From: a virus | UHGV virus genome: UHGV-0138535 | Reading direction: 5' to 3' (one strand) | Length of the DNA: 53,721 nucleotides | In this document: one piece after another, positions 2,261 through 52,445 of the stretch | How positions within the stretch are numbered: position 1 is the stretch's first letter | How the letters are laid out: each line of letters starts with the position of its first letter | Program-made: the position numbers and the translations under genes | Notes under the pieces: generated by a model | Told to the model about the DNA's origin: nothing | The model's database searches: none | Seen by the model: the letters and a program-made list of their open reading frames with translations, nothing else

Positions 2261-2464
2261 TTAAACGCCCTCAATTACCCCGCCTTTCACGCGCTCTTTA
2301 ATATCCCATACGTGAGGCTTGCATATTTCCTGATAATAGTGATCCGGCCTGCTGCCGAAATACCATTTGCCATCCATATAAAAATAAACGCCAGAATAAT
2401 TTCCTGGCGCTGCCTTTGTTGCTGCTTCTGGAATTTTCCATTCCATGTAATGTTTAAATTTCAT
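2261..2464 (-). CDS. hypothetical protein
   Basis: 67-aa track ORF, co-oriented, tight spacing. Confidence 0.4.
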   Translation of the reverse strand: MKFKHYMEWKIPEAATKAAPGNYSGVYFYMDGKWYFGSRPDHYYQEICKPHVWDIKERVKGGVIEGV

Positions 2465-2648
2465 GAGTTTTTAAATAACCCCTTCTGAATGCTTTGATGT
2501 AAATTCCTAGTCGCCTTATATGTTGAACGCCATCAATAAGACGTATTAAATAAATCGCTCCTTTTGCGTCAGATACAAATCTACACCCGAAACCAATGCC
2601 AACTAATTTTAGGTTATCAGGTATTCGATAATCAGTTTCTTGTTCCAT
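2454..2648 (-). CDS. hypothetical protein
   Basis: 64-aa track ORF overlapping neighbour by 11 nt. Confidence 0.35.
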   Translation of the reverse strand: MEQETDYRIPDNLKLVGIGFGCRFVSDAKGAIYLIRLIDGVQHIRRLGIYIKAFRRGYLKTHEI

Positions 2649-4715: not shown

Positions 4716-4936
4716 TTGCCACCCTCCGCAATTAACTTATCAAGCCATTTGTTATTAGCCAGCCGTTCGGCATCTTCGCCGAATGATTTACGGTCGCTTA
4801 ATTCCTGGCGAGTAGGCTTAGGCCATTTATCGTGCCACCCTGCAGACGTTTCGAACTCATACAGGCCGCCGTCAAAACAAATAAGCTCATCACAACCGTC
4901 AGGAATTTCCTTGTCTACTTCTTTTTCTTCAATCAT
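4712..4936 (-). CDS. hypothetical protein
   Basis: 74-aa track ORF. Confidence 0.45.
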   Translation of the reverse strand: MIEEKEVDKEIPDGCDELICFDGGLYEFETSAGWHDKWPKPTRQELSDRKSFGEDAERLANNKWLDKLIAEGGK

Positions 4937-4948
4937 GATAACACCTCA

Positions 4949-5227
4949 TTAATCGTTAATGACCTGGCCCATACGCCCGCGATATTTGCGCATACGTGGA
5001 TCGACATATTCAGGCCAGTGCATATCCGGTTTTCTTTGCAGCGGATAAAAACTTGCCTGCCAGTTGTCGAACCATATTTGTTTTGCGTACAGGTCACTAA
5101 ATCTTTTTGCCATCCGTTCCGCTGCCGTGCCGCATAAAAAAAGCCCGCGATCGATTTGATCACGGGCTTCTTTTAATACTTGCTCTTTTGTTCGTGGCGG
5201 TGGTGGCGGTTTTAGATAATCAACCAT
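4949..5227 (-). CDS. hypothetical protein
   Basis: 92-aa track ORF downstream of ssb. Confidence 0.45.
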   Translation of the reverse strand: MVDYLKPPPPPRTKEQVLKEARDQIDRGLFLCGTAAERMAKRFSDLYAKQIWFDNWQASFYPLQRKPDMHWPEYVDPRMRKYRGRMGQVIND

Positions 5228-5242
5228 CGCTAACCTATTGGA

Positions 5243-5647
5243 TCAAAACGGGATATCGTCATCAAAGTCCATCGGCGGATTATTCCCGTTATTATTCTGC
5301 TGCTGCGGAGGCGCTTTCTGCTGCTGGCCTTGTTGGTTAACGTTCATGAATTCAAATTCGTTAACCGCCACTTCTACCGCCGTTCCCTTCGTGCCGTCGT
5401 TCCGGTCATATTGCCGAACATCCAGGCGACCGCTTACCACTATTTTTCCACCCTTGCGGATATGTGGCGCTAATTTTTCCGCACGCTCACCAAATACCAG
5501 GCAAGTGACCCACATTGTCCGCTTATTATCGCCGTAGCCATTCGTTACAGCTAACGGAAAACTACCAATCGCTTTCCCGTTTTGTGTGTAGCGAACCTCC
5601 ATATCATTACCGATATTCCCGCCCAGCGTGATTGAATTTAAACTCAT
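5243..5647 (-). CDS. ssb: single-stranded DNA-binding protein
   Basis: 134 aa; OB-fold N-terminus (LGGNIGNDMEVRYTQNG), Gln/Pro-rich linker and acidic tail PPMDFDDDIPF typical of SSB. Confidence 0.85.
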   Translation of the reverse strand: MSLNSITLGGNIGNDMEVRYTQNGKAIGSFPLAVTNGYGDNKRTMWVTCLVFGERAEKLAPHIRKGGKIVVSGRLDVRQYDRNDGTKGTAVEVAVNEFEFMNVNQQGQQQKAPPQQQNNNGNNPPMDFDDDIPF

Positions 5648-6291
5648 TAACCCATCTCCCCGTTAAGCTCTGCTACCCGGATGTCATAAACATCTTTTGC
5701 CTTGATTCGATGTTCCGATCCTTCCGGTAGTAATTTCCAGCATTTGCCAAATATTTCACGCAGCTTGTTAGCGTCCTGCGCTTTCGCTGCTGCATCACAG
5801 AAACGTGCTAATACTTCATCAGGATTTGGCGGCGCTTTCTGCTGCTGTGGTTGTTGTTTTGGTGGGTTTTTCTGCTGGCGAGGCTGCTGGCCTGTCTGCT
5901 TAGCGTATGCGTCAGTATCAGGATCTCGCGCATCATCAATGCAGAATAAACCGTTCAAAGCATATTTTCGCGCGTAACTTGATGTCGCACCTGTTAGCTG
6001 GCTTGCGTCCATTCCCTTCTTGCTTTCTTCTTCCCTGGCGTAAGCCGTTACCGCTATTTCGTCTTCACCGTCGCTTAGCGTCGCCGTAGCTTTCACATAA
6101 TAGCGATTGCCGATCAGGACAATTTCATCGCTTACAGTCAGCGTAATACTTTGAAGCAGTGGTTTAACCGCCTCTAAAATATCCTCCGCCGACCTGTAAT
6201 TATATCCACCAAAATTATTACGCTGATTTTTCGGCGCGTTCAGCGTTTGCTGAATCGTCCATAGCTTTTTATGTAACTCTGTTTTCACCAT
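5647..6291 (-). CDS. erf: Erf-family single-strand annealing recombinase
   Basis: 214 aa; conserved block NAPKNQRNNFGGYNYRSAEDILEAVKPLL...DEIVLIGNRYYVKATATL...GATSSYARKYALNGLF matches P22 Erf family. Confidence 0.85.
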   Translation of the reverse strand: MVKTELHKKLWTIQQTLNAPKNQRNNFGGYNYRSAEDILEAVKPLLQSITLTVSDEIVLIGNRYYVKATATLSDGEDEIAVTAYAREEESKKGMDASQLTGATSSYARKYALNGLFCIDDARDPDTDAYAKQTGQQPRQQKNPPKQQPQQQKAPPNPDEVLARFCDAAAKAQDANKLREIFGKCWKLLPEGSEHRIKAKDVYDIRVAELNGEMG

Positions 6292-8073: not shown

Positions 8074-8182
8074 AAAAACAAATATCACGCAACGGCGGGA
8101 TCTGTTGAGCGGTCAGTCACTGCTATCTAATGCTAATGGGATGCCCGCCCGCGCGTTCACTCTAACCATAGGAGAAAATGCG

Positions 8183-8440
8183 ATGAGTATGAACATGATT
8201 AGTAAAGCATGGAACGTAAAACTTAATAGCCCGATTCAAAAACTTGTCTTAATGGCTCTGGCTGAAAAGGCAGATAACAAAGGACGGGTACATGATGCAT
8301 CACGCAAAGAAGTAGCCGCAATGTGTGAACTTCCTGTTCATACGGTACATGATGCCTTCGCCGCGTTAATGGATAAAGGATTTGTTTGTCGTCTTGATGC
8401 ATTCAGTGATGTCTATGTAGTGATGTTGCCGGAGGGATGA
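8183..8440 (+). CDS. winged-helix DNA-binding protein (HTH_36-like)
   Basis: In-frame ATG at 8183 with GGAGAAAA RBS inside track ORF 8105..8440 (track start is TTG); LNSPIQKLVLMALAEKADNKGRV...VHTVHDAFAALMDKGFV. Confidence 0.6.
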   Translation: MSMNMISKAWNVKLNSPIQKLVLMALAEKADNKGRVHDASRKEVAAMCELPVHTVHDAFAALMDKGFVCRLDAFSDVYVVMLPEG

Positions 8441-8443
8441 TCT

Positions 8444-9496
8444 ATGAAGTGGTTTAAGCATGACAGCGATGCGAACCGCGATGAAAAACTTCAAAACGTT
8501 TTGTTAGATTATGGCCTGGAAGGGTACGGGCTTTATTGGTATTGCCTCGAACTAATAACTTATGACGTAGATCAGCACAATCTGAATTTTGACCTACGAC
8601 ATGACGCGAGAATCATTGCGCGAAACGTCGGATCTACTGAAAAACGTATAGAAGAAATGATGAAATACTTCATCGAAATTGGTTTGTTTGAATGTTCTCA
8701 AGGCCACATAACTTGTTTAAAGTTATTGAAAAGGCTGGACCAATCAATGACTTCTAAAAGCGCTTACAGGGCCGCCATAAACACAGCGAAGGAGCAATTA
8801 AAATTAGAAAAGTTAATCAATCCAACACAAAAAGGTCATGATAGGGTCATGACCGGGTCAGGAAAGGGTCATGAATTAGAATTAGAAGTAGAAAAAGAAA
8901 GAGAAAAAGATATATACACTTCGTGTATTGTCGAAAATGAACAAAAAATGGTCAATCAGGATGGCGTAAACGAAGCGGCATTGCGTTGCCTTGCCTTCTA
9001 CAACGACAAGGCAGGATGCAAATGTCGTGATGCTAAGCCATTCGTAGAACTACTGACAGAAACAAAAACACGTAAAGCGTATACGGAGAATGAGATCACG
9101 TTAGTAATTGAGTGGGCTTTAACCCAATGGCGTAGCCGTGGTGGAGTACCTAAGCCTATCAACATTTGCCGGGTAACTAAATTTGATGGGTATCTGACTG
9201 ATGCTGAACAATGGCGCAAACTGTCAGCCACTGTAAACGCTGCCGACGTGGTGGAAGCATTTAACAGCACGTTTGACGGCCTGTTACCACCTGCCGAACT
9301 GGATCGGGATCTTGAACGCAAGATCTATGCGTTCACTGACTACCTGAAAGACAAAAGCATTAACGGCTTTGTCGCCTACTTCGAAACGTTCAAAAACACG
9401 GCTTCAGATTTTTACTTCGGCGATGGCTTCACCGCGACACTTGATTTCCTGCTTAAACCAAAAACGCTACGTGATACGCGCGCTGGCGTTCTTTGA
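8444..9496 (+). CDS. replication initiation protein (DnaD-like N-terminal replisome organiser domain)
   Basis: 350 aa; N-terminus MKWFKHDSDANRDEKLQNVLLDYGLEGYGLYWYCLE typical of phage replisome organisers; precedes helicase. Confidence 0.7.
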   Translation: MKWFKHDSDANRDEKLQNVLLDYGLEGYGLYWYCLELITYDVDQHNLNFDLRHDARIIARNVGSTEKRIEEMMKYFIEIGLFECSQGHITCLKLLKRLDQSMTSKSAYRAAINTAKEQLKLEKLINPTQKGHDRVMTGSGKGHELELEVEKEREKDIYTSCIVENEQKMVNQDGVNEAALRCLAFYNDKAGCKCRDAKPFVELLTETKTRKAYTENEITLVIEWALTQWRSRGGVPKPINICRVTKFDGYLTDAEQWRKLSATVNAADVVEAFNSTFDGLLPPAELDRDLERKIYAFTDYLKDKSINGFVAYFETFKNTASDFYFGDGFTATLDFLLKPKTLRDTRAGVL

Positions 9497-9870: not shown

Positions 9871-10407
9871 ATGCGCAAGTTAACACATGAAGAACAAGTT
9901 GCAGCTATCGCGAAAGTTAATCCTGATGTTGAAGTGCTGGTTGAAATAGTTAATAACAGTACAAAAGTATTATGCCGCTGCAAGGTTTGTGATCATGAGT
10001 GGTCGGCTAAACCTAGAGACATTAAGAGCGGGCGCGGTTGCCCGAAATGCGCTAAATACGGGTTTTTATCACACTACAACGGAAAACTTTACATCATGGT
10101 TGATGATCTTGAAGTGCCTACACAAATGAAAATTGGTGTAAGCGTAAAAGAGAACGAAAGGAGGAACAGAGTATTTAAAAGTGCTCGTAAGGCAGGTGTA
10201 AGGCTGACTGATTTACAGGTAGTTAAAACATGGAATGGGCCTACTGAGATTATGCAGGAAATAGAAAGCAAAATGCACGATGCTTTCAGTGACTATAAAA
10301 TAAACTTCCCTGTTAAGTTTGATGGTAGCACTGAATTTTTTTATTACAGGCCGGAAGTATTCGACATGGTAGAAGAAACATATAAAGAGATTGTTTGCTG
10401 TCAATAA
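9871..10407 (+). CDS. zinc-ribbon plus T5orf172/GIY-YIG-like domain protein
   Basis: 178 aa; CRCKVCDHEW...CPKCA zinc ribbon; GKLYIMVDD...KIGVS...ENERRNRV...HDAF...GSTEFFYY resembles T5orf172 motifs; AT-rich; own RBS AAGGAG. Confidence 0.55.
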   Translation: MRKLTHEEQVAAIAKVNPDVEVLVEIVNNSTKVLCRCKVCDHEWSAKPRDIKSGRGCPKCAKYGFLSHYNGKLYIMVDDLEVPTQMKIGVSVKENERRNRVFKSARKAGVRLTDLQVVKTWNGPTEIMQEIESKMHDAFSDYKINFPVKFDGSTEFFYYRPEVFDMVEETYKEIVCCQ

Positions 10408-10440: not shown

Positions 10441-11559
10441 ATGTCGCAAAGAAAAATCAGCGATGAGCAATTGATCGCTGAATATAACAACGGTTTAACG
10501 TACAAGCAGATCGCTGAAAAATATGGCATGTCAAAACGCAACGTCGAGCGGCTGGGCGCAAAGCTGGCGAAACGCGGTTTATTATCAACGCGCCGCGCCC
10601 CTGGTTTTGGCGTTACTGGTGAGTCGGTTCTTGTCGATAAGGATGGGAATACAGTCATGCGCTGGATTAAAACAGCCCGTGATCGCGATGAAATGGAAAG
10701 GCTAATGGAAGCGGCCCGCGACGCTTTCACTGAAGAAATCCCACGCGCGGAGGCCGTGCCAGTGCCGGAAATTGATTTTCAAAAAAGCCTGGCCCTTTAT
10801 CCGGTATTTGATCTGCATATCGGGGCGCTTGCTCATAAAGCTGAATGCGGCGAGAGTTACGACACTGGGATCGCTGAGCGCGTATTGAATGAATTCTTTG
10901 ACTACGCTGTAGGCGCTGCGCCGATGTCTGAGAAAGCTGTTTTGCTTCTCGGTGGGGATGTTCTTCACACTGACGGGCTGTTGCCAGTTACGCCATCAAG
11001 CAATCACGTTCTTGATTGCGATTCGCGCTATGCAAAACTTGTCTATGTAGCGATCAGGTCGGTCCGGCGGGCTGTCGGGAAGATGTTGTTAAATCATAGG
11101 GATATTGAAATCCAGGTACTATCAGGCAATCACGACCAGTCTGGTATGATTTGGCTACGTGCTGCGCTGGCGGCTTTTTACGAAGACGAACCGCGCGTAA
11201 CTGTTGATGTGTCCCCTGCTATCGTCCACCACACACAGTACGGCAAAACATTCCTTGCTTACCACCACGGGCACACTATCAAAAAGCCGGAAAATTTATT
11301 GTCTGCTTGCGTAGCTGACTGGCGTGAGGATTTCGGCAAGTCTGCGGCGGTTTACGCTCATTGCGGGCACTGGCACCATCAACGGCTGATTGAATCATCG
11401 CTAGGCGTTGTTGAGTATCACGGCACATTAGCGGGCAAAGACGCTTATTCAACTAATGGCGGCTGGCGGTCGCGGCGTCTGGCAGCGGTGATTATTTACA
11501 GCCCGGATCATGGGGAGATCGGGCGCTTTGTTTATTACCCTGAACATTCCATTTTGTAA
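10441..11559 (+). CDS. HTH domain fused to calcineurin-like metallophosphoesterase
   Basis: 372 aa; N-terminal sigma-70 region 4-like HTH; phosphoesterase motifs FDLHIG, GGDVLHTDG, GNHD, HHGH, GHWHH. Confidence 0.6.
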   Translation: MSQRKISDEQLIAEYNNGLTYKQIAEKYGMSKRNVERLGAKLAKRGLLSTRRAPGFGVTGESVLVDKDGNTVMRWIKTARDRDEMERLMEAARDAFTEEIPRAEAVPVPEIDFQKSLALYPVFDLHIGALAHKAECGESYDTGIAERVLNEFFDYAVGAAPMSEKAVLLLGGDVLHTDGLLPVTPSSNHVLDCDSRYAKLVYVAIRSVRRAVGKMLLNHRDIEIQVLSGNHDQSGMIWLRAALAAFYEDEPRVTVDVSPAIVHHTQYGKTFLAYHHGHTIKKPENLLSACVADWREDFGKSAAVYAHCGHWHHQRLIESSLGVVEYHGTLAGKDAYSTNGGWRSRRLAAVIIYSPDHGEIGRFVYYPEHSIL

Positions 11560-11577: not shown

Positions 11578-12999
11578 ATGGTAACTGAGCAAATAAACTC
11601 ACTACGGCAGGAACGTGAAGCGTCAGTTATCGGCGGGCTGCTGTTAGGTGGCCTTACTCCTAACGCTCAAGATGTTCTCGCCACACTTGATCCTGAAGTG
11701 TTCACGATCCCGCTTTATAAACGTGCGTTTGAAGTTATCCGGGCGCAAGCCAGAAACAGAAATCTTATCGACGCTTTATTGGTTGGCGATGAAATTGGCA
11801 ATGAAAACTTTGTACCACTGATGCAAACGGCGCGATCGTGTCCTTCTGCTGCCAACCTGAAGGGATACGCACAGCTACTACGTGAAGAGCACCAGCGGCG
11901 GCAGATGTTGGAACTCATCGACGATATGCGCTACAAACTGGAAACGGGGACGCTTGAAGTCGTCAGGGAGACGATGAAAGATTTTGATTCCCGGTATTCA
12001 AAATTAAAGGTAACAAAAGATCAAATTATCCCGGTGCTGTTGCGCGATGCGGTCCAGGAATACACGGAAGTGTTAAGTAAACGCATGGAGTGTGGCGTGA
12101 ACTCTGACAACATCAAAACAGGGATTGACCCACTCGACGAAATGTTAGGCGGCATTAACGCTACTGATCTGGTGCTTATCGCCGGACGCCCAGGGTCTGG
12201 TAAATCGGCGTTGGCGTTGGCAATTGCCCGCGCGGCGGCTGAACGTCCATACCCTGGAGGCGAAGGTCAGCGGGTCGGCGTTTTGCTGTTCACGCTTGAA
12301 ATGTCGCTCGATCAGATGACTGAACGCGCTATCGCTGGCGCGGGTAACTTATCAACGGATTGCCTACGTAATCCGGTAAAACTGGATGACGAAGGTTGGG
12401 CGCACGTAGCACAGGGAATGAGCGCCCTTGCCGATCTCGACGTGTGGATTGTTGACGCATCGCAGTTAACGGTCGAGGAAATACGCGCCACCGTCGAACG
12501 GATGAAACAGGACCATCCTAACCTGGGGATGGTAATGATTGACTACATCGGGTTAATGAAGCTGGCTAAGGCCGAGCGTCATGATCTCGCTGTAGGGCAA
12601 TTGTCGTGGTCATTGAAAATGATGGCGAAGGAGTTGCGCGTGCCAGTAGCGGCACTTGCGCAATTATCCCGCCGCGTTGAGGAACGACCGAACAAGCGCC
12701 CGAACAATTCTGATCTGCGTGATTCCGGTAATCTTGAACAAGACGCAGACCGGATCATCATGGTCTACCGCGACGGCTACTACAACGAACAATCTGTTGC
12801 CCGCGAATACATGGAGATTATCGTTTCAAAAAACCGTCACGGGAAAACGGGTACTGTTTACCAGCGGTTTGATGATAACGGCAACATTTTACCATGCGAC
12901 CAGGCCCGCGCGGCTTCGGCTTGCATTCAGTCTATGCAACAACGTCCGTCTGCAAGCCGATTCTCACCACGAAACAACCAGAATAACGCATCTTTTTAA
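11578..12999 (+). CDS. DnaB-family replicative helicase
   Basis: 473 aa; Walker A GRPGSGKS, DnaB-like N-terminal domain and RecA-like C-terminal motifs. Confidence 0.85.
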   Translation: MVTEQINSLRQEREASVIGGLLLGGLTPNAQDVLATLDPEVFTIPLYKRAFEVIRAQARNRNLIDALLVGDEIGNENFVPLMQTARSCPSAANLKGYAQLLREEHQRRQMLELIDDMRYKLETGTLEVVRETMKDFDSRYSKLKVTKDQIIPVLLRDAVQEYTEVLSKRMECGVNSDNIKTGIDPLDEMLGGINATDLVLIAGRPGSGKSALALAIARAAAERPYPGGEGQRVGVLLFTLEMSLDQMTERAIAGAGNLSTDCLRNPVKLDDEGWAHVAQGMSALADLDVWIVDASQLTVEEIRATVERMKQDHPNLGMVMIDYIGLMKLAKAERHDLAVGQLSWSLKMMAKELRVPVAALAQLSRRVEERPNKRPNNSDLRDSGNLEQDADRIIMVYRDGYYNEQSVAREYMEIIVSKNRHGKTGTVYQRFDDNGNILPCDQARAASACIQSMQQRPSASRFSPRNNQNNASF

Positions 13000-13077
13000 T
13001 TAACTTGAGAAACGGCTTACCGGAAAGTTTACCGCTTTCTGGTGGCTGTTTTCGCGCTTAAATCGAGGCTAGAAACA

Positions 13078-13605
13078 ATGAAAACCATTTATAAAACACA
13101 AATAGCGAAATTTTTACAGGATGCCACTGTTGCTGGTGAAGCAACAATTATTAAATCTATTCCAGGTCCTGAAATCGAGATCGTTAATAGTTTGCGTGAT
13201 ATGGTTTCTGACGGCGCTATTATTCCTGTGGAAATGGGAGGGCCGCGATTATCATATTGCTTGAAGTCAGTGCGCGAAATGGCAATAAAAAAAATCATGC
13301 CTTTATTTCTGAATAGTAGCAATTATTTTTCTGCTGAGGATGTTAAAAAAGAATTAAAACTCGAAATAAAACAGAGGAAAATTTGTCGGGTTTTAAAGAT
13401 GTTAGGCAGTGAAAATTTATTAACAGTTAATAAATTTGATGGGAAATACTTTTTTAGATCAGCTCGCTTCTATGGTTGTTCGAGTCCTATCGTATTTGAA
13501 TTTAACAACCGCCTGAATGAATACCGGAAAAATAACGGCCTGCTGCCGGATAAACCAGTATTTGAGATCGAAAAACTTAACGGTGAAACGGGGTTGGAAT
13601 TATGA
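13078..13605 (+). CDS. hypothetical protein (AT-rich moron)
   Basis: ATG at 13078 with GAGG RBS inside track ORF 13042..13605; markedly AT-rich versus flanks. Confidence 0.45.
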   Translation: MKTIYKTQIAKFLQDATVAGEATIIKSIPGPEIEIVNSLRDMVSDGAIIPVEMGGPRLSYCLKSVREMAIKKIMPLFLNSSNYFSAEDVKKELKLEIKQRKICRVLKMLGSENLLTVNKFDGKYFFRSARFYGCSSPIVFEFNNRLNEYRKNNGLLPDKPVFEIEKLNGETGLEL

Positions 13606-13808
13606 GACGGGTAATCTTTTATTCAGTTGAAACGTTTATTGACGATACGCGCGTTTATTATCCGTGGGAAGTATACGACGCAAAGGTGTATACACCGCCA
13701 CTGATGCGGAAATATAAACACGTAAAATTTAACCGGGTTTTTGTACCAATGCGTGATGCACTGCAGGCGCTGCGCGGTGAATTACGAAACACAATGCGTA
13801 TTGTGTGA
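13602..13808 (+). CDS. hypothetical protein
   Basis: 68-aa track ORF, start overlaps upstream stop. Confidence 0.4.
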   Translation: MRRVIFYSVETFIDDTRVYYPWEVYDAKVYTPPLMRKYKHVKFNRVFVPMRDALQALRGELRNTMRIV

Positions 13809-13817
13809 GGTGGCGTT

Positions 13818-14015
13818 ATGGATAAGGAATTAGATTTAACAGTTGAAGACCTGAGCACGATTGCGGAATACATGCGCGACGATGATCCTGATCGTCCTGT
13901 CGTCGTTGATATGAAAAAACTAAAAAACGACCATATGGCTAGTTCAAGGCTCATTTCTTTATGGGCGATCATGTATGCGCGGGCGCAATGGAAAAATAGC
14001 AACGGTGTATTATGA
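13818..14015 (+). CDS. hypothetical protein
   Basis: 65-aa track ORF; stop overlaps ninB start. Confidence 0.4.
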   Translation: MDKELDLTVEDLSTIAEYMRDDDPDRPVVVDMKKLKNDHMASSRLISLWAIMYARAQWKNSNGVL

Positions 14016-14443
14016 GGCAAATTAGATTTGAGATAGTCAACGACGCCGTGAAAGAAAATGCTATCAGGCAGATAAGGGAAATACAGCCTGATAGCAAAAG
14101 CCCGCTGATAATCACCATCCAGGAGAAAACCCGCTCGCTAAGCCAAAATAGCCTTCTATGGGCGTTGCTAACCGACATTAGTGATCAGGTTAATTGGTAC
14201 GGTAAGAGGCTGTCGCCGGAAGACTGGAAGGCGGTATTCACTGCCGGGCTTAAGAAATATGGCGTTGTCCCTAACCTGGACAAATCAGGCTTTGTTGTGC
14301 TGGGAACATCAACCAGCCGGATGAGTAAAGCGGAATTTAGCGAATTAATCGAACTGATCTACTCGTTCGGCGCTGAGCATGGCGTTCAGTGGTCAGGTGA
14401 TACGAAATTAAACGAGGAATTTATAAAACGCTGGGGGCAATAA
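14012..14443 (+). CDS. ninB: NinB recombination protein
   Basis: 143 aa; closely parallels lambda NinB (TIQEKTRSLSQNSLLWALLTDISDQVNWYGKRL...VVPNL...GFVVLGTSTSRMSKAEFSELIELI). Confidence 0.8.
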   Translation: MRQIRFEIVNDAVKENAIRQIREIQPDSKSPLIITIQEKTRSLSQNSLLWALLTDISDQVNWYGKRLSPEDWKAVFTAGLKKYGVVPNLDKSGFVVLGTSTSRMSKAEFSELIELIYSFGAEHGVQWSGDTKLNEEFIKRWGQ

Positions 14444-14619
14444 TGGTTGAGTATTTTAAAGCTAAACCGACCGGGATTTATTACAAGGTAGAAAATGGTA
14501 ATGTGTTTTATCTTAATCGCGCGGCTAATGAGTGGCGAGAGTGTCAGTGCTACTACCTGAGAGATATTAGAAATCATCCACATTATTTTATTAAAGTTGA
14601 CGATGTACCAGTGGCATAA
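14443..14619 (+). CDS. small hypothetical protein (58 aa)
   Basis: ATG overlapping ninB stop (TAATG); not in track. Confidence 0.35.
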   Translation: MVEYFKAKPTGIYYKVENGNVFYLNRAANEWRECQCYYLRDIRNHPHYFIKVDDVPVA

Positions 14620-14633
14620 TTGAGGATAAACAA

Positions 14634-15290
14634 ATGAGTAAATCAAAAGCAATCGGTGTGATTAGCCATCGCACTAACCCTGAATGCTACCCATCGTTTG
14701 AAGTATCGACATGCAGGGAAGAATATAATTTTGGATCATGTTATTTAGTTGGTGTTCGCGCTGATCGCGGCACTTATTCTGTTATGGCGGCAAGCTGGAA
14801 GTTTGATAAATATGCCAATTTATCTAATAAAGATGATGATGGCATGAACAAAGAAAGTGAAATCATTGACGAATTAATCGAAGATGAGCGGCATGATTGC
14901 GATACGCCAGAAGTTACGGAATGGATGGCAGGAGAAAAGCCTCCATGCGGAGTATGGCTTGAGCTTCTAGATCCTGTCGATGGTCGGAAATATGTTATTC
15001 TGAAATACAAGTATATAAGTGATCGCCTTGCTCTTTTTGTAGAAATGGATGCGCCTGATTTTGAACAAGCCGGGGAATGGAAGCATTTCGCTCATAAGTT
15101 GTATGTAGATCCGAAAGAAAAAATACTGGCTGAAATTGCGTTTGCACTTGCTACTAAGGTTATCGGTGAAGATGCTGCAAAAGAAATTGATTTTAACCGC
15201 GACAACGAATTTTCGTGCGATTATCGCAATATGGCGCAAGCTATTATAGACGGATGTATAGGACACGTTGAATACACGGGGGGTGAATAA
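14634..15290 (+). CDS. hypothetical protein (AT-rich)
   Basis: 218-aa track ORF; AT-rich. Confidence 0.5.
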   Translation: MSKSKAIGVISHRTNPECYPSFEVSTCREEYNFGSCYLVGVRADRGTYSVMAASWKFDKYANLSNKDDDGMNKESEIIDELIEDERHDCDTPEVTEWMAGEKPPCGVWLELLDPVDGRKYVILKYKYISDRLALFVEMDAPDFEQAGEWKHFAHKLYVDPKEKILAEIAFALATKVIGEDAAKEIDFNRDNEFSCDYRNMAQAIIDGCIGHVEYTGGE

Positions 15291-15520
15291 TGGATAAAAC
15301 GGCAACAATTCTTCTTAGTCGCCCTGCCATCTGCCGTATGCTGGGGGGAATTAGCAGGGGAACGTTTTACTTATGGCGTAAAAAGTGGGAACGGAACGGA
15401 ACTCCGTTCCCGGCCCCTGTTGATGTACTTGGTACCGGGCGTGGCGTTATGTACCGCTATCAGGACGTAATGCAGTTCTTTGATCAGATTGGTTTAACGT
15501 CAGCCAAAGATAATACATAA
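15290..15520 (+). CDS. AlpA-family HTH regulator / putative excisionase
   Basis: 76 aa; ICRMLGGISRGTFYLWRKKWERNGTPFPAPVDVLGTGRGVMYRYQDVMQFF matches AlpA/Xis-type HTH; overlaps integrase 3' end convergently by 37 nt. Confidence 0.65.
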   Translation: MDKTATILLSRPAICRMLGGISRGTFYLWRKKWERNGTPFPAPVDVLGTGRGVMYRYQDVMQFFDQIGLTSAKDNT

Positions 15521-16674
15521 TCCGCAAACTTATTTAGTGCCTCCTTTTGTTCATCAAGATAATCATATTTGTCGTACACCGCCAGTATCCCCCTTAATGA
15601 ATGGCCTAAGACCTTTTCTGCAATATGTACCGGAACACCTATAGCTGAAAGGTGTGTCCGGCACGTCCTGCGGAGGTCGTGACAGGACCATGATTTACCG
15701 CCCATCCTTTTACGCACGAATATTGCAGCTACTTTTATCACTGATGCGTTTACTGGCCTGTTGCCGCCGTTAATCACTGGCGGGAATACATAATCATACT
15801 CATGGGAGGTTAAAACCTCCCTGAGCATTTTTATCGACAAGTCAGATAATCCCCGCCTGATTTCACTTCTTGTCTTCGCCACCGCCGCCGGAACGGTCCA
15901 TACACCGTTGTCCAGGTCTAGGTGTTCCCTTCTCATTTTCTGCAATTCACCAACCCTACACCCGGTTAGCAATAATAGCTTTAAGGCTATTTTGTTCTGC
16001 GGATAGATCTGCGAACTGTCTACCGTGCGCCAGAAGTGGCCTATCTCCTCACATGAAAGGTAACGCTCCCCCACCGCATAATGCTCGCCAACGTCAGCTA
16101 CACGGATATTGTTTATCGCCGTGTTAGTCATTAGCCCGCGCCTGATTGCGCTGTTAACGATGATTTTCATTCGCTTCAATATCAAACCAGCCGTAACCGC
16201 GTGACCCGCCGCAGTGATCTCGCCAAATATATCCATCCACTGTTTTGTCGTTACGTCGTCAGCTATGTAGTCGCCGTACTTGTTGACAACATGGCGCATC
16301 AATGCGCTTTTGACTTCTTTATATGCCACCAGCTTAATGACGTTCGGCAGGGATAGATAGTCTTCCACTACGTCTGTTATCGATCTCTTGCCCTGTTCAA
16401 AGGCTATGGCCTGCTTTACGCACAGTGCCGGATTCTTCCCTTTCGTAAGCAACTCCCTGTATTCAGCCACCGCGTAGCGGGCGTCTTTCAGACTCATTTT
16501 CCCGTACTCGCCGATCTTCATTCGCACTGGCTTACCGTTGAATCTGTAACGGTACTGGAAAGTAATTTTTCCTTTTGGACTTATCCTGGCTGACAGGCCG
16601 TCACGATCAGCTATCTCGCTTGGGCCGTCGTATGGCTTGTTGGCGATGGTCCTTAACCTGGTATCCGTAAGCAT
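15484..16674 (-). CDS. int: tyrosine integrase (P4-like, with N-terminal arm-binding domain)
   Basis: Track ORF 15484..16776; likely start ATG 16674 (GGGGG upstream); N-terminal arm-binding-like region, C-terminal catalytic region with HDLRRT and VLGHS. Confidence 0.85.
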   Translation of the reverse strand: MLTDTRLRTIANKPYDGPSEIADRDGLSARISPKGKITFQYRYRFNGKPVRMKIGEYGKMSLKDARYAVAEYRELLTKGKNPALCVKQAIAFEQGKRSITDVVEDYLSLPNVIKLVAYKEVKSALMRHVVNKYGDYIADDVTTKQWMDIFGEITAAGHAVTAGLILKRMKIIVNSAIRRGLMTNTAINNIRVADVGEHYAVGERYLSCEEIGHFWRTVDSSQIYPQNKIALKLLLLTGCRVGELQKMRREHLDLDNGVWTVPAAVAKTRSEIRRGLSDLSIKMLREVLTSHEYDYVFPPVINGGNRPVNASVIKVAAIFVRKRMGGKSWSCHDLRRTCRTHLSAIGVPVHIAEKVLGHSLRGILAVYDKYDYLDEQKEALNKFADYVLSLADVKPI

Positions 16675-16685
16675 GTTGCCCCCAT

Positions 16686-16950
16686 TTTTGGTCACGTTTT
16701 GGTACACAGTTTTTGTTGTACGGATATTAACAGTATTGTACGGAATTAGAAACGTGATGCCGGATTTTGGTTGCAACCGAATGATTTTTAAGTGATTTTA
16801 GTGGCGTAATTGAACGGGGTTAAACACCTTTAAACATAGTGCGCAGGTCCTGTCTGGAATGATTAGTGTAACTAATAATCATTTATAAAACAGAATGTTA
16901 TGTTGTTTTTGATTTTGGTTTTTGATATTTGGTCACTATTTGGTACACAA
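16686..16950. other. candidate attP / integrase arm-site region
   Basis: AT-rich non-coding segment upstream of int flanked by near-identical 24-bp direct repeats (TTTTGGTCACGTTTTGGTACACAG / ATTTGGTCACTATTTGGTACACAA) plus TTGTACGGA and TTTTGGTT repeats. Confidence 0.35.
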
Positions 16951-30102: not shown

Positions 30103-30762
30103 ATGAAACGGTTAGCAAAAGTGGCAATGATTGCGGCGGTATTGGGTCTGGTTGGTTGCAATGAGGATAATGAAAAAGCGCCTATAGTGACCAATCAAGA
30201 GCAACAAGCATTAGCAGAGAAAAATGCTAAATGGCTTGCAGAACAACAAGCAAAACAAGCCGCATACGATGCACAGTTAGAAAAAGAAAATGCTGGTAAA
30301 CAGTGGCTTGTAGTTGAAAGAAAAGATGATATGCAGGACGCAAAAAACGTATTCCTTTTTGTGAAAGCAGAACAATTCAGCGGAAGTCTTGATGCTTTCC
30401 CGACACTGAAGGCACAGGATAAGAATAAACCGGTATTAACAATCGCTTGCCAGGGTAATAAAACAAAAATGTTCGTAGCATGGTCACACCATGTAACTGA
30501 CGCCGGGGACACTACTTATATTAACTACCGGATCGGCGTTCACAAAGCTGTAGCTACTGAGTGGTGGCGGTCAACTAATTATAAAGCTCTTGGATTATGG
30601 GACGGCAAAAAAGCCATCCCAATGATTAAAAAACTGGTTAACGAAAAACAATTCATCATTGAAGTAGTGCCGGAAGCTGGCGACATTGAGAAAGCAGTGT
30701 TTAACATTGATGGTCTTTATAACCACATCGACAAAGTGAAAAACGCTTGCAACTGGAATTAA
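30103..30762 (+). CDS. lipoprotein (moron, opposite strand within tail operon)
   Basis: 219 aa; signal peptide with lipobox LVGC (MKRLAKVAMIAAVLGLVGC). Confidence 0.6.
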   Translation: MKRLAKVAMIAAVLGLVGCNEDNEKAPIVTNQEQQALAEKNAKWLAEQQAKQAAYDAQLEKENAGKQWLVVERKDDMQDAKNVFLFVKAEQFSGSLDAFPTLKAQDKNKPVLTIACQGNKTKMFVAWSHHVTDAGDTTYINYRIGVHKAVATEWWRSTNYKALGLWDGKKAIPMIKKLVNEKQFIIEVVPEAGDIEKAVFNIDGLYNHIDKVKNACNWN

Positions 30763-30772
30763 GGGGTAAATC

Positions 30773-31147
30773 ATGAAAAAAATAATCAAAGCGGTTCTCA
30801 TTGGTGTTATGGCTTTAGCTCTTACAGGGTGCGCAAGATCAACTGATTTCGTTAAGTTAGCTGATAAAAATTTGCAAGTTGGAATGACTTGTGAGCAAGT
30901 GAATAAAATAATGGGGGAACCACAAAGAATCGAGCATGACGGTAATTATAGTTATCACGTATGGTATTCAGTAACCAGCACGATAGGATTTACTTACATG
31001 GATGTTGAAGAATTATCCCCTTCAAGGGTTATCGCAAAGTTTGATAACTGCATCCTAAAAGAATGGAAAGATCGCAGTAAGGCAAAGTCTGTATACAATA
31101 CAATCACACACAGTTCACCAGGTACAGCAATTAAAGATTTCAATTAG
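30773..31147 (+). CDS. lipoprotein, BamE/SmpA-OmlA-like domain (moron)
   Basis: 124 aa; signal peptide with lipobox LTGC; GMTCEQVNKIMGEPQRIEHDGNYSYHVWY resembles BamE-like fold. Confidence 0.55.
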   Translation: MKKIIKAVLIGVMALALTGCARSTDFVKLADKNLQVGMTCEQVNKIMGEPQRIEHDGNYSYHVWYSVTSTIGFTYMDVEELSPSRVIAKFDNCILKEWKDRSKAKSVYNTITHSSPGTAIKDFN

Positions 31148-51548: not shown

Positions 51549-51956
51549 TCACACCTCCCAATAATTCTGAATATATTCGTTAATATCAGGTAACACCCCT
51601 GAATGTTCTTTCACTTTTACGAATATCTGGCCGTTTTTTATTTTATGGCACTTTACAACCTTAAGACTAAAAACCTGCCTATCATCAACCCAAAAATGAG
51701 CGTAAGTAAGACTATCGAATATTGCTTTTAAGCAATTATCAATATCGTGTGGGCGTAGTGTAGGTGGCGCTACATATATATAAACGGAAACATTAAAATC
51801 AATATTAAGATCAAGTTTTAGTGATTCTATTATTTCTTTGACTTTTTTTTGGAAATCCTTGCCTTTGTTTGTTACATACTTACTACCCCTTTTATTGTTG
51901 CCGTAATAAGAATTAACCGATGGTGCCCAGGGTAACGTGAATTCAAATTCACGCAT
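51549..51956 (-). CDS. rusA: RusA-family Holliday junction resolvase
   Basis: Internal ATG at 51956 with AAGGAG RBS; LPWAPSVNSYY...RPHDIDNCLKAIFDSLTYAHFWVDDRQV matches RusA motifs. Confidence 0.75.
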   Translation of the reverse strand: MREFEFTLPWAPSVNSYYGNNKRGSKYVTNKGKDFQKKVKEIIESLKLDLNIDFNVSVYIYVAPPTLRPHDIDNCLKAIFDSLTYAHFWVDDRQVFSLKVVKCHKIKNGQIFVKVKEHSGVLPDINEYIQNYWEV

Positions 51957-52445
51957 CAAAATCTCCTTGCTTACACCATTGTTTTCATGGAAACAATATT
52001 TTTTTTCTCCTTTTTTTCTGACATCCACTGCATCTTCAAAATTATCAAACTGACCAAGATACACATTTTTACCATTAACACATATTTCCGCTCTATAGTA
52101 TCCGTTAGAAAGTTTATGAACCCCAGGCTGCCCACTTTTATTATTTTTTGGTTTTGCCTGATTTCTTCCGTTTTGCTTATGAGTAACAAGGCGTAAATTT
52201 TCTATCCTGTTATCATTTCTGTTGTGCCAAATATGATCTATCTCGCATCCTTTCGGAATTGGTCCGTTATGCATTTCCCATATAATTCTATGTACTTTAT
52301 GTAATTTATCGTTAACACGAACAACCCAATAACCACTATTTTTATGGATGCAACCAGCCAAATCACCAGCGTTACACTTTCCTTTCTTTCCCTTCCAATA
52401 TAAAAAACCGTTGTCGTATTCAAATATATCATGCCAATTATTCAT
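51957..52445 (-). CDS. HNH homing endonuclease with AP2-like DNA-binding domain (no own stop; in frame with rusA)
   Basis: N-terminal 163 codons of track ORF 51549..52445; HNH motif CEIDHIWHNRNDNRIENLRLVTHKQN and AP2-like GVHKLSNGYYRAEI; AT-rich. Confidence 0.65.

Follow-up and report, generated by a model that had tools for sequence, protein, structure and literature searches.

Conserved early-operon genes with exchanged alleles as a probable account of the AT-rich region around ninB in a mEp021-like coliphage

The small open reading frames that surround ninB in the DNA analysed here, a window of 53,721 nt, are best explained as conserved distal genes of the early replication-recombination-excision operon of a mEpimmI phage, a reading to which we assign a probability of about 0.7. 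It holds that ORFs A to E sit in fixed slots, each of which would contain several old alleles swapped via recombination at conserved flanks, and that they are not optional, independently transcribed morons. The direct observations are the universal presence of the genes, their synteny, coupling and purifying selection, sharp mosaic breakpoints, allele reassortment, the fold of A and the build of E. The window is the complete genome of a mEp021-like (mEpimmI) temperate coliphage. Its nucleotide identity is 83-89% to mEp021, mEp554, mEp515, mEp044, mEp010, mEp013 and MagusPhagus, and it has the similarity to mEp021, the gene order, the CI-like repressor, the Q-like antiterminator and the tyrosine integrase that mark the group. 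The mEpimmI phages, which include the mEp021 relatives, are non-lambdoid (PMC11893012); the lambdoid setting from which an earlier, sequence-only reading had argued is not supported. Phages of the mEp021 type are frequent in the human gut.

The early operon would run from a cro-like gene through initiator, exonuclease, DnaB, A, B, C, NinB, D and E to Xis, convergent with int. Four of the ORFs (A, B, C and E) are present where they had first been placed, and a fifth, ORF D, had been missed. The features of the region are the following.

13009..13052, + strand: strong intercistronic RNA hairpin in the gap between dnaB and ORF A, found by folding; a scan lists it as terminator-like
13078..13605, + strand: ORF A, 175 aa, basic, pI 9.2, homologue (allele class 1a) of mEp021 gp08
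13082..13494, + strand: AT-rich allelic cassette, the winged-helix module of A (residues 2-139), without nucleotide homology to allele-2 phages
13495..13602, + strand: conserved 3' end of A, encoding the tail ...LNEYRKNNGLLPDKPVFEIEKLNGETGLEL, almost invariant
13602..13808, + strand: ORF B, 68 aa, basic, pI 10.0, homologue of mEp021 gp07
13818..14015, + strand: ORF C, 65 aa, acidic, pI 4.9, homologue of mEp021 gp06
14012..14443, + strand: NinB/Orf recombination mediator (PF05772, E 1.1e-46; phrog_72)
14443..14619, + strand: ORF D, 58 aa (58 codons), conserved throughout the relatives (in mEp021 as a copy without annotation)
14634..15290, + strand: ORF E, 218 aa, acidic, pI 4.7, 7 Cys, homologue of mEp021 gp03
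15290..15520, + strand: ORF F, 76 aa HTH protein (PF13384 HTH_23, E 1.8e-6; phrog_4745)
15484..16776, - strand: tyrosine integrase, convergent with the operon (PF00589, PF13356, phrog_1)

The comparison covered 49 related loci, made up of seven sequenced relatives, two E. coli prophages and 40 IMG/VR loci (41 were found); five of the seven phages were inspected as loci and all seven by tblastn. The order DnaB-A-B-C-NinB-D-E-Xis-Int is kept in all 49, and A, B, C, D and E were found in each of them wherever the locus sequence extends far enough. A search of 50,697 phage records placed A, B, C and D in the seven mEpimmI phages and in no others, and the ORF E profile found only its own family among 1.84 billion representatives. 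The ORF starts either overlap the preceding stops or stand 9-14 nt away from them. Within alleles, dN/dS was 0.08 in both A and D, 0.17 in both B and C, and 0.30 in E, next to 0.05 for DnaB and 0.04 for NinB; judged by these ratios, ORFs A to E evolve under purifying selection. A search for positive selection gave nothing, the pooled within-allele dN/dS being below 0.35 in every gene and sub-domain and pN exceeding pS in almost no pair. Between alleles, dS is above 1 for A, D and the whole of E (where the central domain is saturated), compared with 0.2-0.7 for DnaB and NinB.

The D and E alleles of the window are also found paired with A allele 2 in three loci (L026, L030 and L032), and the A allele showed no association with the integrase type or with the B, D or E alleles; in these sequence comparisons the alleles of different slots reassort freely. 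Presence/absence variation in the region is limited to methyltransferase genes that mEp021 and locus L019 carry between C and NinB. True optional cargo is located elsewhere in the genome. Across the loci compared, it is the allele that varies between phages and not the presence of the gene.

The mEp021 genes gp08, gp07, gp06 and gp03, together with their counterparts in mEp554, mEp515, mEp044, mEp010, mEp013 and MagusPhagus, are direct positional homologues with the same helicase-to-integrase order. Protein identity to these counterparts is 51-97% for B, C and E, whereas A carries a different AT-rich winged-helix cassette and has only its C-terminal tail in common with them, at an overall identity of about 32%; D and E belong to other alleles than those of the counterparts. 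A more distant likeness, which the sequence-only reading had recognised correctly, is that of the position after the helicase and around NinB to the lambda ren/nin region. As in lambda and P22, small packed delayed-early ORFs that include NinB follow the replication genes, with a hairpin upstream, in an operon of the N-type antiterminator kind. However, the phage of the window is non-lambdoid, the cluster ends in xis/int, NinG, RusA and Q are placed in another operon and not in the ninB cluster, and no ORF other than NinB resembles Ren or NinA-NinH.

The region had been described as compositionally atypical, and it is: the span 13078-15290 has a GC content of 41.1%, within the lowest 0.8% of equal-length windows, in a genome of 45.7% GC (sd of 4.1% among 500-bp windows) and beside neighbours of 51.4% (DnaB) and 46.8% (NinB). 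The statement that four ORFs are markedly AT-rich applies to A, and weakly to E through GC3 only, but B (43.5%) and C (42.4%) both lie less than 1 sd from the mean. ORF A has 35.8% GC (z -2.0) and a GC3 of 32.4% (z -1.6), the fourth lowest among 93 ORFs, and ORF D has 37.3%. In ORF E, at 41.1% GC (z -0.8) with the seventh lowest GC3 of the 93 (32.9%), the AT-richness sits chiefly at third codon positions. The AT-rich part of A is confined to 13082-13494 (GC 34.6%), and the other A allele class (mEp021, mEp554, mEp044, mEp013 and MagusPhagus) has 43-46% GC; the AT-richness of ORF A is a property of one allele class only. We infer that AT-richness is patchy because alleles have been exchanged by recombination at conserved flanks. 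Low GC beside conserved genes is thus insufficient for a moron label, and here it would reflect allelic cassette exchange within kept genes. A, D and E do share a GC lower than that of neighbouring genes with the classical morons, for which lambda bor and lom and HK97 gp15 are the examples reportedly given by Juhala et al. in 2000. Unlike such morons, the ORFs have no presence/absence polymorphism and no predicted promoter or terminator of their own, and they lie on the same strand with coupled translation.

The sequence-only reading had taken the ORFs for morons and for candidates for horizontally acquired defence or anti-defence functions; that they are acquired morons encoding defence, exclusion or anti-defence functions we consider unlikely. 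One form of this idea is that host immunity would be inhibited by E, and perhaps also by the small ORFs B, C and D, and that an arms race would drive the diversity of alleles. In its favour, GC and GC3 are low in A, D and E, these orphans are restricted to one lineage, E has a hypervariable domain and an acidic, possibly DNA-mimicking linker, and the position in the early operon is typical of phage anti-defence genes. However, the ORFs occur in every relative, are tightly coupled and have no predicted promoter of their own, their dN/dS is 0.08-0.30 with pN > pS in almost no pair, and the real optional insertions found here, the methyltransferase genes between C and NinB, look unlike A to E. 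The label of moron is not supported, in view of universal presence, operon coupling and purifying selection. That of defence or anti-defence candidate fares poorly as well: none of ORFs A to F matched a defence model of PADLOC-DB 2.0 at E <= 0.1, and NCBIfam gave no match for the ORFs. The exclusion gene of the mEpimmI family sits elsewhere, experiment having shown it to be a lipoprotein gene between tail-fibre genes (PMC11893012, section 3.7). Horizontal acquisition is borne out for parts of genes, which have been exchanged (breakpoints at 13081/13495 in A, at least six domain types in E), but the gene slots themselves are fixed.

Homology of A to its relatives ends at base 13081 and restarts at 13495, and the 413-bp cassette between stands in place of a tandem winged-helix module. 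At the protein level it shares about 25-33% identity with allele 2 and 71% with allele 1b. In 17 sequences from both allele classes, the stretch from L146 to N168 varies at one position only, the last 30 residues are near-invariant in both, and the tail has a dN of 0.05-0.09 against a dS of 0.14-0.84. The predicted model of A is laid out as a tandem winged-helix module followed by a helix and the invariant tail, and the fold of its two winged-helix domains resembles MarR, ArsR and Fur. From this model, A is probably a nucleic-acid-binding adaptor or regulator. Its target would be set by the swappable winged-helix module, and a conserved partner would be engaged through the C-terminal helix and tail, which do not vary.

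The ORFs had been said to have no recognisable domains. This is right for Pfam at curated thresholds, but A has the tandem winged-helix model and matches phrog_1687 ('MarR family') over nearly its full length (E 6e-5), and C matches phrog_21123, a family without assigned function (E 2.6e-9). We rejected A as a MarR member, because neither A nor its alleles match the MarR Pfam families (PF01047, PF12802) above the gathering threshold and because A has two tandem winged helices, not one flanked by dimerisation helices. In some genomes PGAP labels the allele-2 protein a regulator of the Lrp/AsnC family; this assignment was also rejected, HTH_24 being matched only below threshold (best E 0.015, allele-2 proteins) and the RAM domain (AsnC_trans_reg) being absent. 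Identity to winged-helix regulators of the MarR, ArsR, Fur and MecI types and to the tandem winged-helix domains of SelB is 7-19%, with no Pfam family above threshold, and A differs from MarR/Lrp regulators in having neither the MarR dimerisation helices nor the Lrp/AsnC ligand domain, and in its extra invariant disordered tail. Profiles of A and E against PDB sequences returned nothing below E 0.4.

It seems quite unlikely that A is a classical transcription factor for int/xis or for the lysis-lysogeny decision, acting via a phage operator. The MarR-, ArsR- and Fur-like fold, the PGAP name given to some allele-2 proteins and the operon shared with a putative Xis would suit such a role. However, A matches no Pfam regulator family above threshold, and its allele 1b goes together with a type I integrase in MIN12 and with a type II integrase in strain 127. 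When whole genomes of two allele-1b and two allele-2 phages were compared in 150-bp tiles, only 8101-8475 co-varied with A; this segment was rejected as an A-linked target, being 100% identical in the allele-2 strains M1/5, FAH and MS 21-1, and its linkage is an effect of the small sample. Since no phage segment co-varies with the A allele, a target of A on the phage genome is not supported. The palindrome at 13413-13437 was likewise rejected as an operator, its half-site not being enriched in the genome and its outer arms being lost by synonymous changes in allele 1b.

Very unlikely, in our judgement, is that A is a replication specificity factor of the lambda O kind, whose variable N-terminal module would bind an origin within its own AT-rich gene while the C-terminus contacts DnaB. 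Lambdoid O/ori cassettes are AT-rich and combine a variable N-terminus with an invariant C-terminus, and A, directly after dnaB, is similar in all three respects; like the mosaic O-type proteins, in which a variable N-terminus binds DNA and a conserved C-terminus binds a partner, it has a swapped N-terminal nucleic-acid-binding module and breakpoints within the gene. But A has a different fold, no sequence similarity to them and no iterons or other origin features. An origin inside A was rejected, because repeat and iteron searches in the three A alleles gave motifs no commoner than in shuffled sequence, and the only palindrome, that at 13413-13437, reflects LLTVNK codons. Moreover, the allele-2 gene is not AT-rich, and a separate initiator with a Lin1244_N domain exists at 8444-9496.

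The conserved-operon reading extends to the short ORFs B, C and D. That some of these are not real genes is extremely unlikely, even though they are short and inconsistently annotated in RefSeq/GenBank (MIN12 and strain 127 lack an annotation of B, and mEp021 lacks one of D). Their frames are intact in 46-49 of the 49 loci with conserved length, their dN/dS is 0.08-0.17 at a dS of about 0.24-0.31, and their starts are coupled to neighbouring stops. The start of B overlaps the stop of A (ATGA), and C overlaps the ninB start by 4 nt. ORF B is present in all relatives with 73-97% amino acid identity and matched no family in Pfam, PHROG, PADLOC or NCBIfam; for D, identity between alleles is 37-53%.

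ORF E is built of four parts: residues 8-59 form a beta domain, 64-92 an acidic disordered linker that is invariant, 108-157 a hypervariable beta domain of the SH3/Tudor-like kind, and 160-205 a helical end that is conserved. The model is of medium confidence (pLDDT 71, pTM 0.44), and nothing consistent emerged when all 45 members of the E family were scanned against Pfam at E <= 1. The central domain of about 50 residues, between the invariant linker and the helical end, comes in at least six types. We infer that E is a protein-binding factor, in which recognition of a variable target, from the host or a competitor, would fall to the hypervariable SH3-like domain, and the invariant acidic linker and helical end would carry a constant activity. 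E may have an anti-defence role. No gene-wide positive selection is seen in E, which weakens an arms-race reading, and the deep allelic diversity could also be neutral mosaicism. A speculative idea, and one we rate as improbable, is that E and possibly A are modular phage effectors with a constant core and a plug-in recognition domain exchanged between phages, so that the same activity is retargeted to host or rival-phage molecules, for example in anti-defence or host takeover. The core may then be the acidic linker and helical end of E and the C-terminal tail of A, and the plug-ins the at least six SH3-like types of E and at least two winged-helix cassettes of A. The region offers two defined, testable orphans: one is a tandem winged-helix protein ending in an invariant tail, putatively for docking, and the other is an acidic protein of four parts whose putative recognition domain is shuffled.

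The hairpin between dnaB and A lies within a block conserved in all relatives. Folding of 13000-13077 yields -26.6 kcal/mol as the MFE, with a z of -3.55 relative to 200 shuffles. The hairpin has a poor U-tract, and the ARNold annotations of mEp044, mEp554 and mEp013 show no terminator at the equivalent site. The hairpin may serve for termination, processing or stabilisation, and it may make expression from A to Xis dependent on the N-like antiterminator of the family, Gp17. A consensus promoter scan found none upstream of any of these ORFs; the only promoter-like site on the + strand of the span (13196-13223) is weak and inside A, and promoter-like matches were fewer than expected (5 against 9.8 in shuffled sequence). 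An Rfam scan of the whole window found no RNA family.

NinB itself matches PF05772 over its full length (158 bits against a cut-off of 23.8 bits) and is 93-97% identical in relatives. At the end of the operon, ORF F probably acts as excisionase or recombination directionality factor. It shares 37 nt at its 3' end with int, and its allele follows the integrase type, with 93% identity to mEp021, which has a type I integrase, and 44-46% to type II phages.

The window is the complete 53.7-kb genome of a temperate coliphage of the mEp021-like 'mEpimmI' group, a family that is Nus-dependent yet non-lambdoid (PMC11893012), and it appears to be circularly permuted relative to the mEp021 record. Over 12900-15600 we found 83-89% identity to mEp021, mEp554, mEp515, mEp044, mEp010, mEp013 and MagusPhagus. 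The early operon and the integrase gene that converges on it are laid out as follows; NinG, an HNH-RusA fusion and a Q-type antiterminator are encoded in the other operon.

8105-8440, + strand, cro-like winged-helix gene
8444-9496, + strand, initiator with a Lin1244_N domain
9871-10407, + strand, variable slot
10441-11559, + strand, exonuclease
11578-12999, + strand, DnaB
13078-13605, + strand, ORF A
13602-13808, + strand, ORF B
13818-14015, + strand, ORF C
14012-14443, + strand, NinB
14443-14619, + strand, ORF D
14634-15290, + strand, ORF E
15290-15520, + strand, ORF F, an HTH protein
15484-16776, - strand, tyrosine integrase

The sequence-only reading took ORFs A, B, C and E for AT-rich morons and candidate defence or anti-defence genes. 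Its ORF coordinates are correct, and its list lacks D, a fifth ORF of 58 codons. The moron label is not borne out, since synteny, translational coupling, purifying selection, family restriction and rarity in E. coli all argue against it. Wherever the contig reaches, the order DnaB-A-B-C-NinB-D-E-F-Int is kept in five sequenced relatives whose loci were inspected, in two E. coli prophages studied closely and in 40 of the 41 IMG/VR loci found, which were the ones analysed; tblastn detected the same ORFs in mEp010 and mEp515. The only presence/absence polymorphism of the region is a DNA methyltransferase gene between C and NinB in mEp021 and in L019, a related locus. ORFs A to F are packed into one translationally coupled unit, with an ATGA junction at A/B, a 4-nt overlap at C/NinB, and 1-nt overlaps at NinB/D and E/F; the remaining gaps measure 9 and 14 nt. 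Sites resembling promoters occur less often than in shuffled sequence. All five ORFs A to E are under purifying selection within allele classes, with dN/dS of 0.08 in both A and D, 0.17 in both B and C, and 0.30 in E, compared with 0.05 for DnaB and 0.04 for NinB. When A, B, C and D were searched by tblastn against 50,697 phage records, the matches were confined to the seven mEpimmI phages, while an E profile run against 1.84 billion representative proteins recovered its own family only (9 clusters). The locus is carried by just 35 of 5,426 complete E. coli genomes. ORFs A to E are thus family-specific early genes with mosaic alleles, a familiar pattern in temperate phages whose significance is modest as it stands and would be higher if A or E turned out to be effectors with swappable specificity.

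The marked AT-richness claimed for these ORFs was only partly confirmed, because several genes elsewhere in the genome (GC 45.7%) are more extreme in composition. It holds for A (GC 35.8%; GC3 32.4%, the 4th lowest among 93 ORFs) but not for B (43.5%) and C (42.4%), which are ordinary; E has a GC of 41.1%, yet its GC3 of 32.9% is the 7th lowest, and D stands at 37.3%. The GC of the whole 13078-15290 span falls within the lowest 0.8% of equal-length windows. As a separate observation, the lowest GC3 of the genome (0.20) belongs to a 64-codon ORF at 2454-2648 (- strand; GC 34%) that has no family match.

Horizontal acquisition, the other part of that reading, is real as an exchange of cassettes. 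At the protein level the window shares 94-97% identity with relatives in DnaB and 93-97% in NinB; the figures drop to 32-33% (A), 73-97% (B), 56-84% (C), 37-51% (D) and 51-70% (E). Synonymous divergence between alleles exceeds 1 in A and D and is saturated in the central domain of E, compared with 0.2-0.7 in DnaB and NinB. Such high values relative to the flanks argue that the variation in A to E consists of old alleles brought together by recombination, rather than of fast local evolution. The alleles of A, D and E reassort freely: the D and E alleles of the window are paired with the other A allele in three related loci (L026, L030 and L032), and L014 to L016 combine its A allele with different alleles of D and E.

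In ORF A, nucleotide homology to the phages carrying the other class of the gene (allele 2) stops at 13081, directly after the start codon, and is back from 13495. The 413-bp cassette between these breakpoints has a GC of 34.6%, against 43-46% for the allele-2 gene. Of the 35 locus-bearing E. coli genomes, 3 carry the A allele of the window, 7 a subtype 77% identical to it and visibly A+T-rich too in the alignment, and the remainder allele 2. The last 30 residues of A (LNEYRKNNGLLPDKPVFEIEKLNGETGLEL) are practically the same in allele classes whose identity elsewhere is only about 25%, and synonymous changes are present in this stretch. A is probably an adaptor or regulator, with an exchangeable module for nucleic-acid binding and a constant tail for docking. 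The search for a target of A on the phage genome came out negative: no iterons were found in gene A, and the A allele does not track integrase type. A 25-nt palindrome at 13413-13437 was rejected as a target site, being a by-product of coding sequence, as was 8101-8475, the one segment whose variation seemed to follow the A allele; this segment is unchanged in allele-2 prophages.

ORF E encodes an acidic protein (pI 4.7) with 422 homologues, every source-named one an E. coli hypothetical protein. It has four parts. A beta-rich N-domain, which comes in two types, is followed by an acidic linker of invariant sequence and predicted disorder (DDDGMNKESEIIDELIEDERHDC); then come a central beta domain (about 50 residues, at least six types, identity down to 16%) and a conserved helical end.

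Between dnaB and A lies a conserved and very stable hairpin (13009-13052, + strand; -26.6 kcal/mol, z -3.55) whose U-tract is poor. The relatives annotated with ARNold (mEp044, mEp554 and mEp013) have no terminator marked at the equivalent position. It could be a terminator, a processing site or a stabiliser, and may make A to F delayed-early and dependent on the N-like antiterminator of the family. ORF F is probably an excisionase, because its allele follows integrase type. At their 3′ ends, the gene for this putative excisionase (+) and that for the integrase (-) share 37 nt (15484-15520), and convergent transcription could couple or antagonize their expression.

The defence reading is largely unsupported: no PADLOC model matched any of the ORFs, and the exclusion function shown by experiment in the mEpimmI family belongs to a lipoprotein encoded between tail-fibre genes (PMC11893012 section 3.7). 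Genes that do resemble morons lie elsewhere in this genome. An AT-rich ORF at 19235-19537 (+; GC 35%, GC3 21%), on the opposite strand between the tail-fibre gene and the J-like gene, fills the slot of the experimentally shown Lpp superinfection-exclusion lipoproteins (PMC11893012) and contains an internal start, after which comes a stretch resembling a signal peptide or lipobox (MKKLIVACILSALSFGAFA). Two further AT-rich ORFs, 30103-30762 and 30773-31147 (+), have a classical moron layout, on the opposite strand within the minus-strand tail operon; one is of the VasI family (type VI secretion; PF11319, E 1.2e-15) and the other small and BamE/DUF7738-like.

The methyltransferases between C and NinB are N6/N4 DNA methyltransferases, found in 2 of 49 loci (mEp021, 4151-4888 of L001; L019, about 4949-5660) and only 54% identical to one another, which marks the C/NinB junction as a hot spot where optional cargo inserts. 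In L040, an IMG/VR relative, NinB is just 54% identical and about 430 additional bases precede D (4719-5589), pointing to another NinB allele or a further gene in the NinB-D slot. The slot between initiator and exonuclease is truly variable, with a KilAC antirepressor in the MIN12 prophage, a BRO protein in that of strain 127 and two other ORFs in mEp044; mEp021 has instead an HNH endonuclease between the exonuclease-like gp11 and the helicase. In the window, 9871-10407 (+) encodes 178 aa with a DUF4379 treble-clef zinc finger and a T5orf172/MUG113 (GIY-YIG-like) domain (GC 39%; weak PADLOC match to PDC-S57, E 0.004), and resembles genuine optional cargo or a gene of homing-endonuclease type. 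The 298-aa fusion at 51549-52445 (-), which combines RusA (E 6e-12) with an HNH_3 endonuclease domain (E 8e-21), is among the most AT-rich genes of the genome (GC 34%) and may reflect the insertion or fusion of a homing endonuclease. MIN12 and strain 127 encode RusA by itself, as a protein of 133 aa. RefSeq calls the portal-position gene of these two prophages (L008 24367-25737 and L009 24182-25552) 'anti-CBASS protein Acb1 family protein', a label that probably stems from an artefact of naming or from a fused domain. Its positional equivalent among the head genes of MagusPhagus is annotated as portal protein, and by synteny the window counterpart lies at about 37941-39332.
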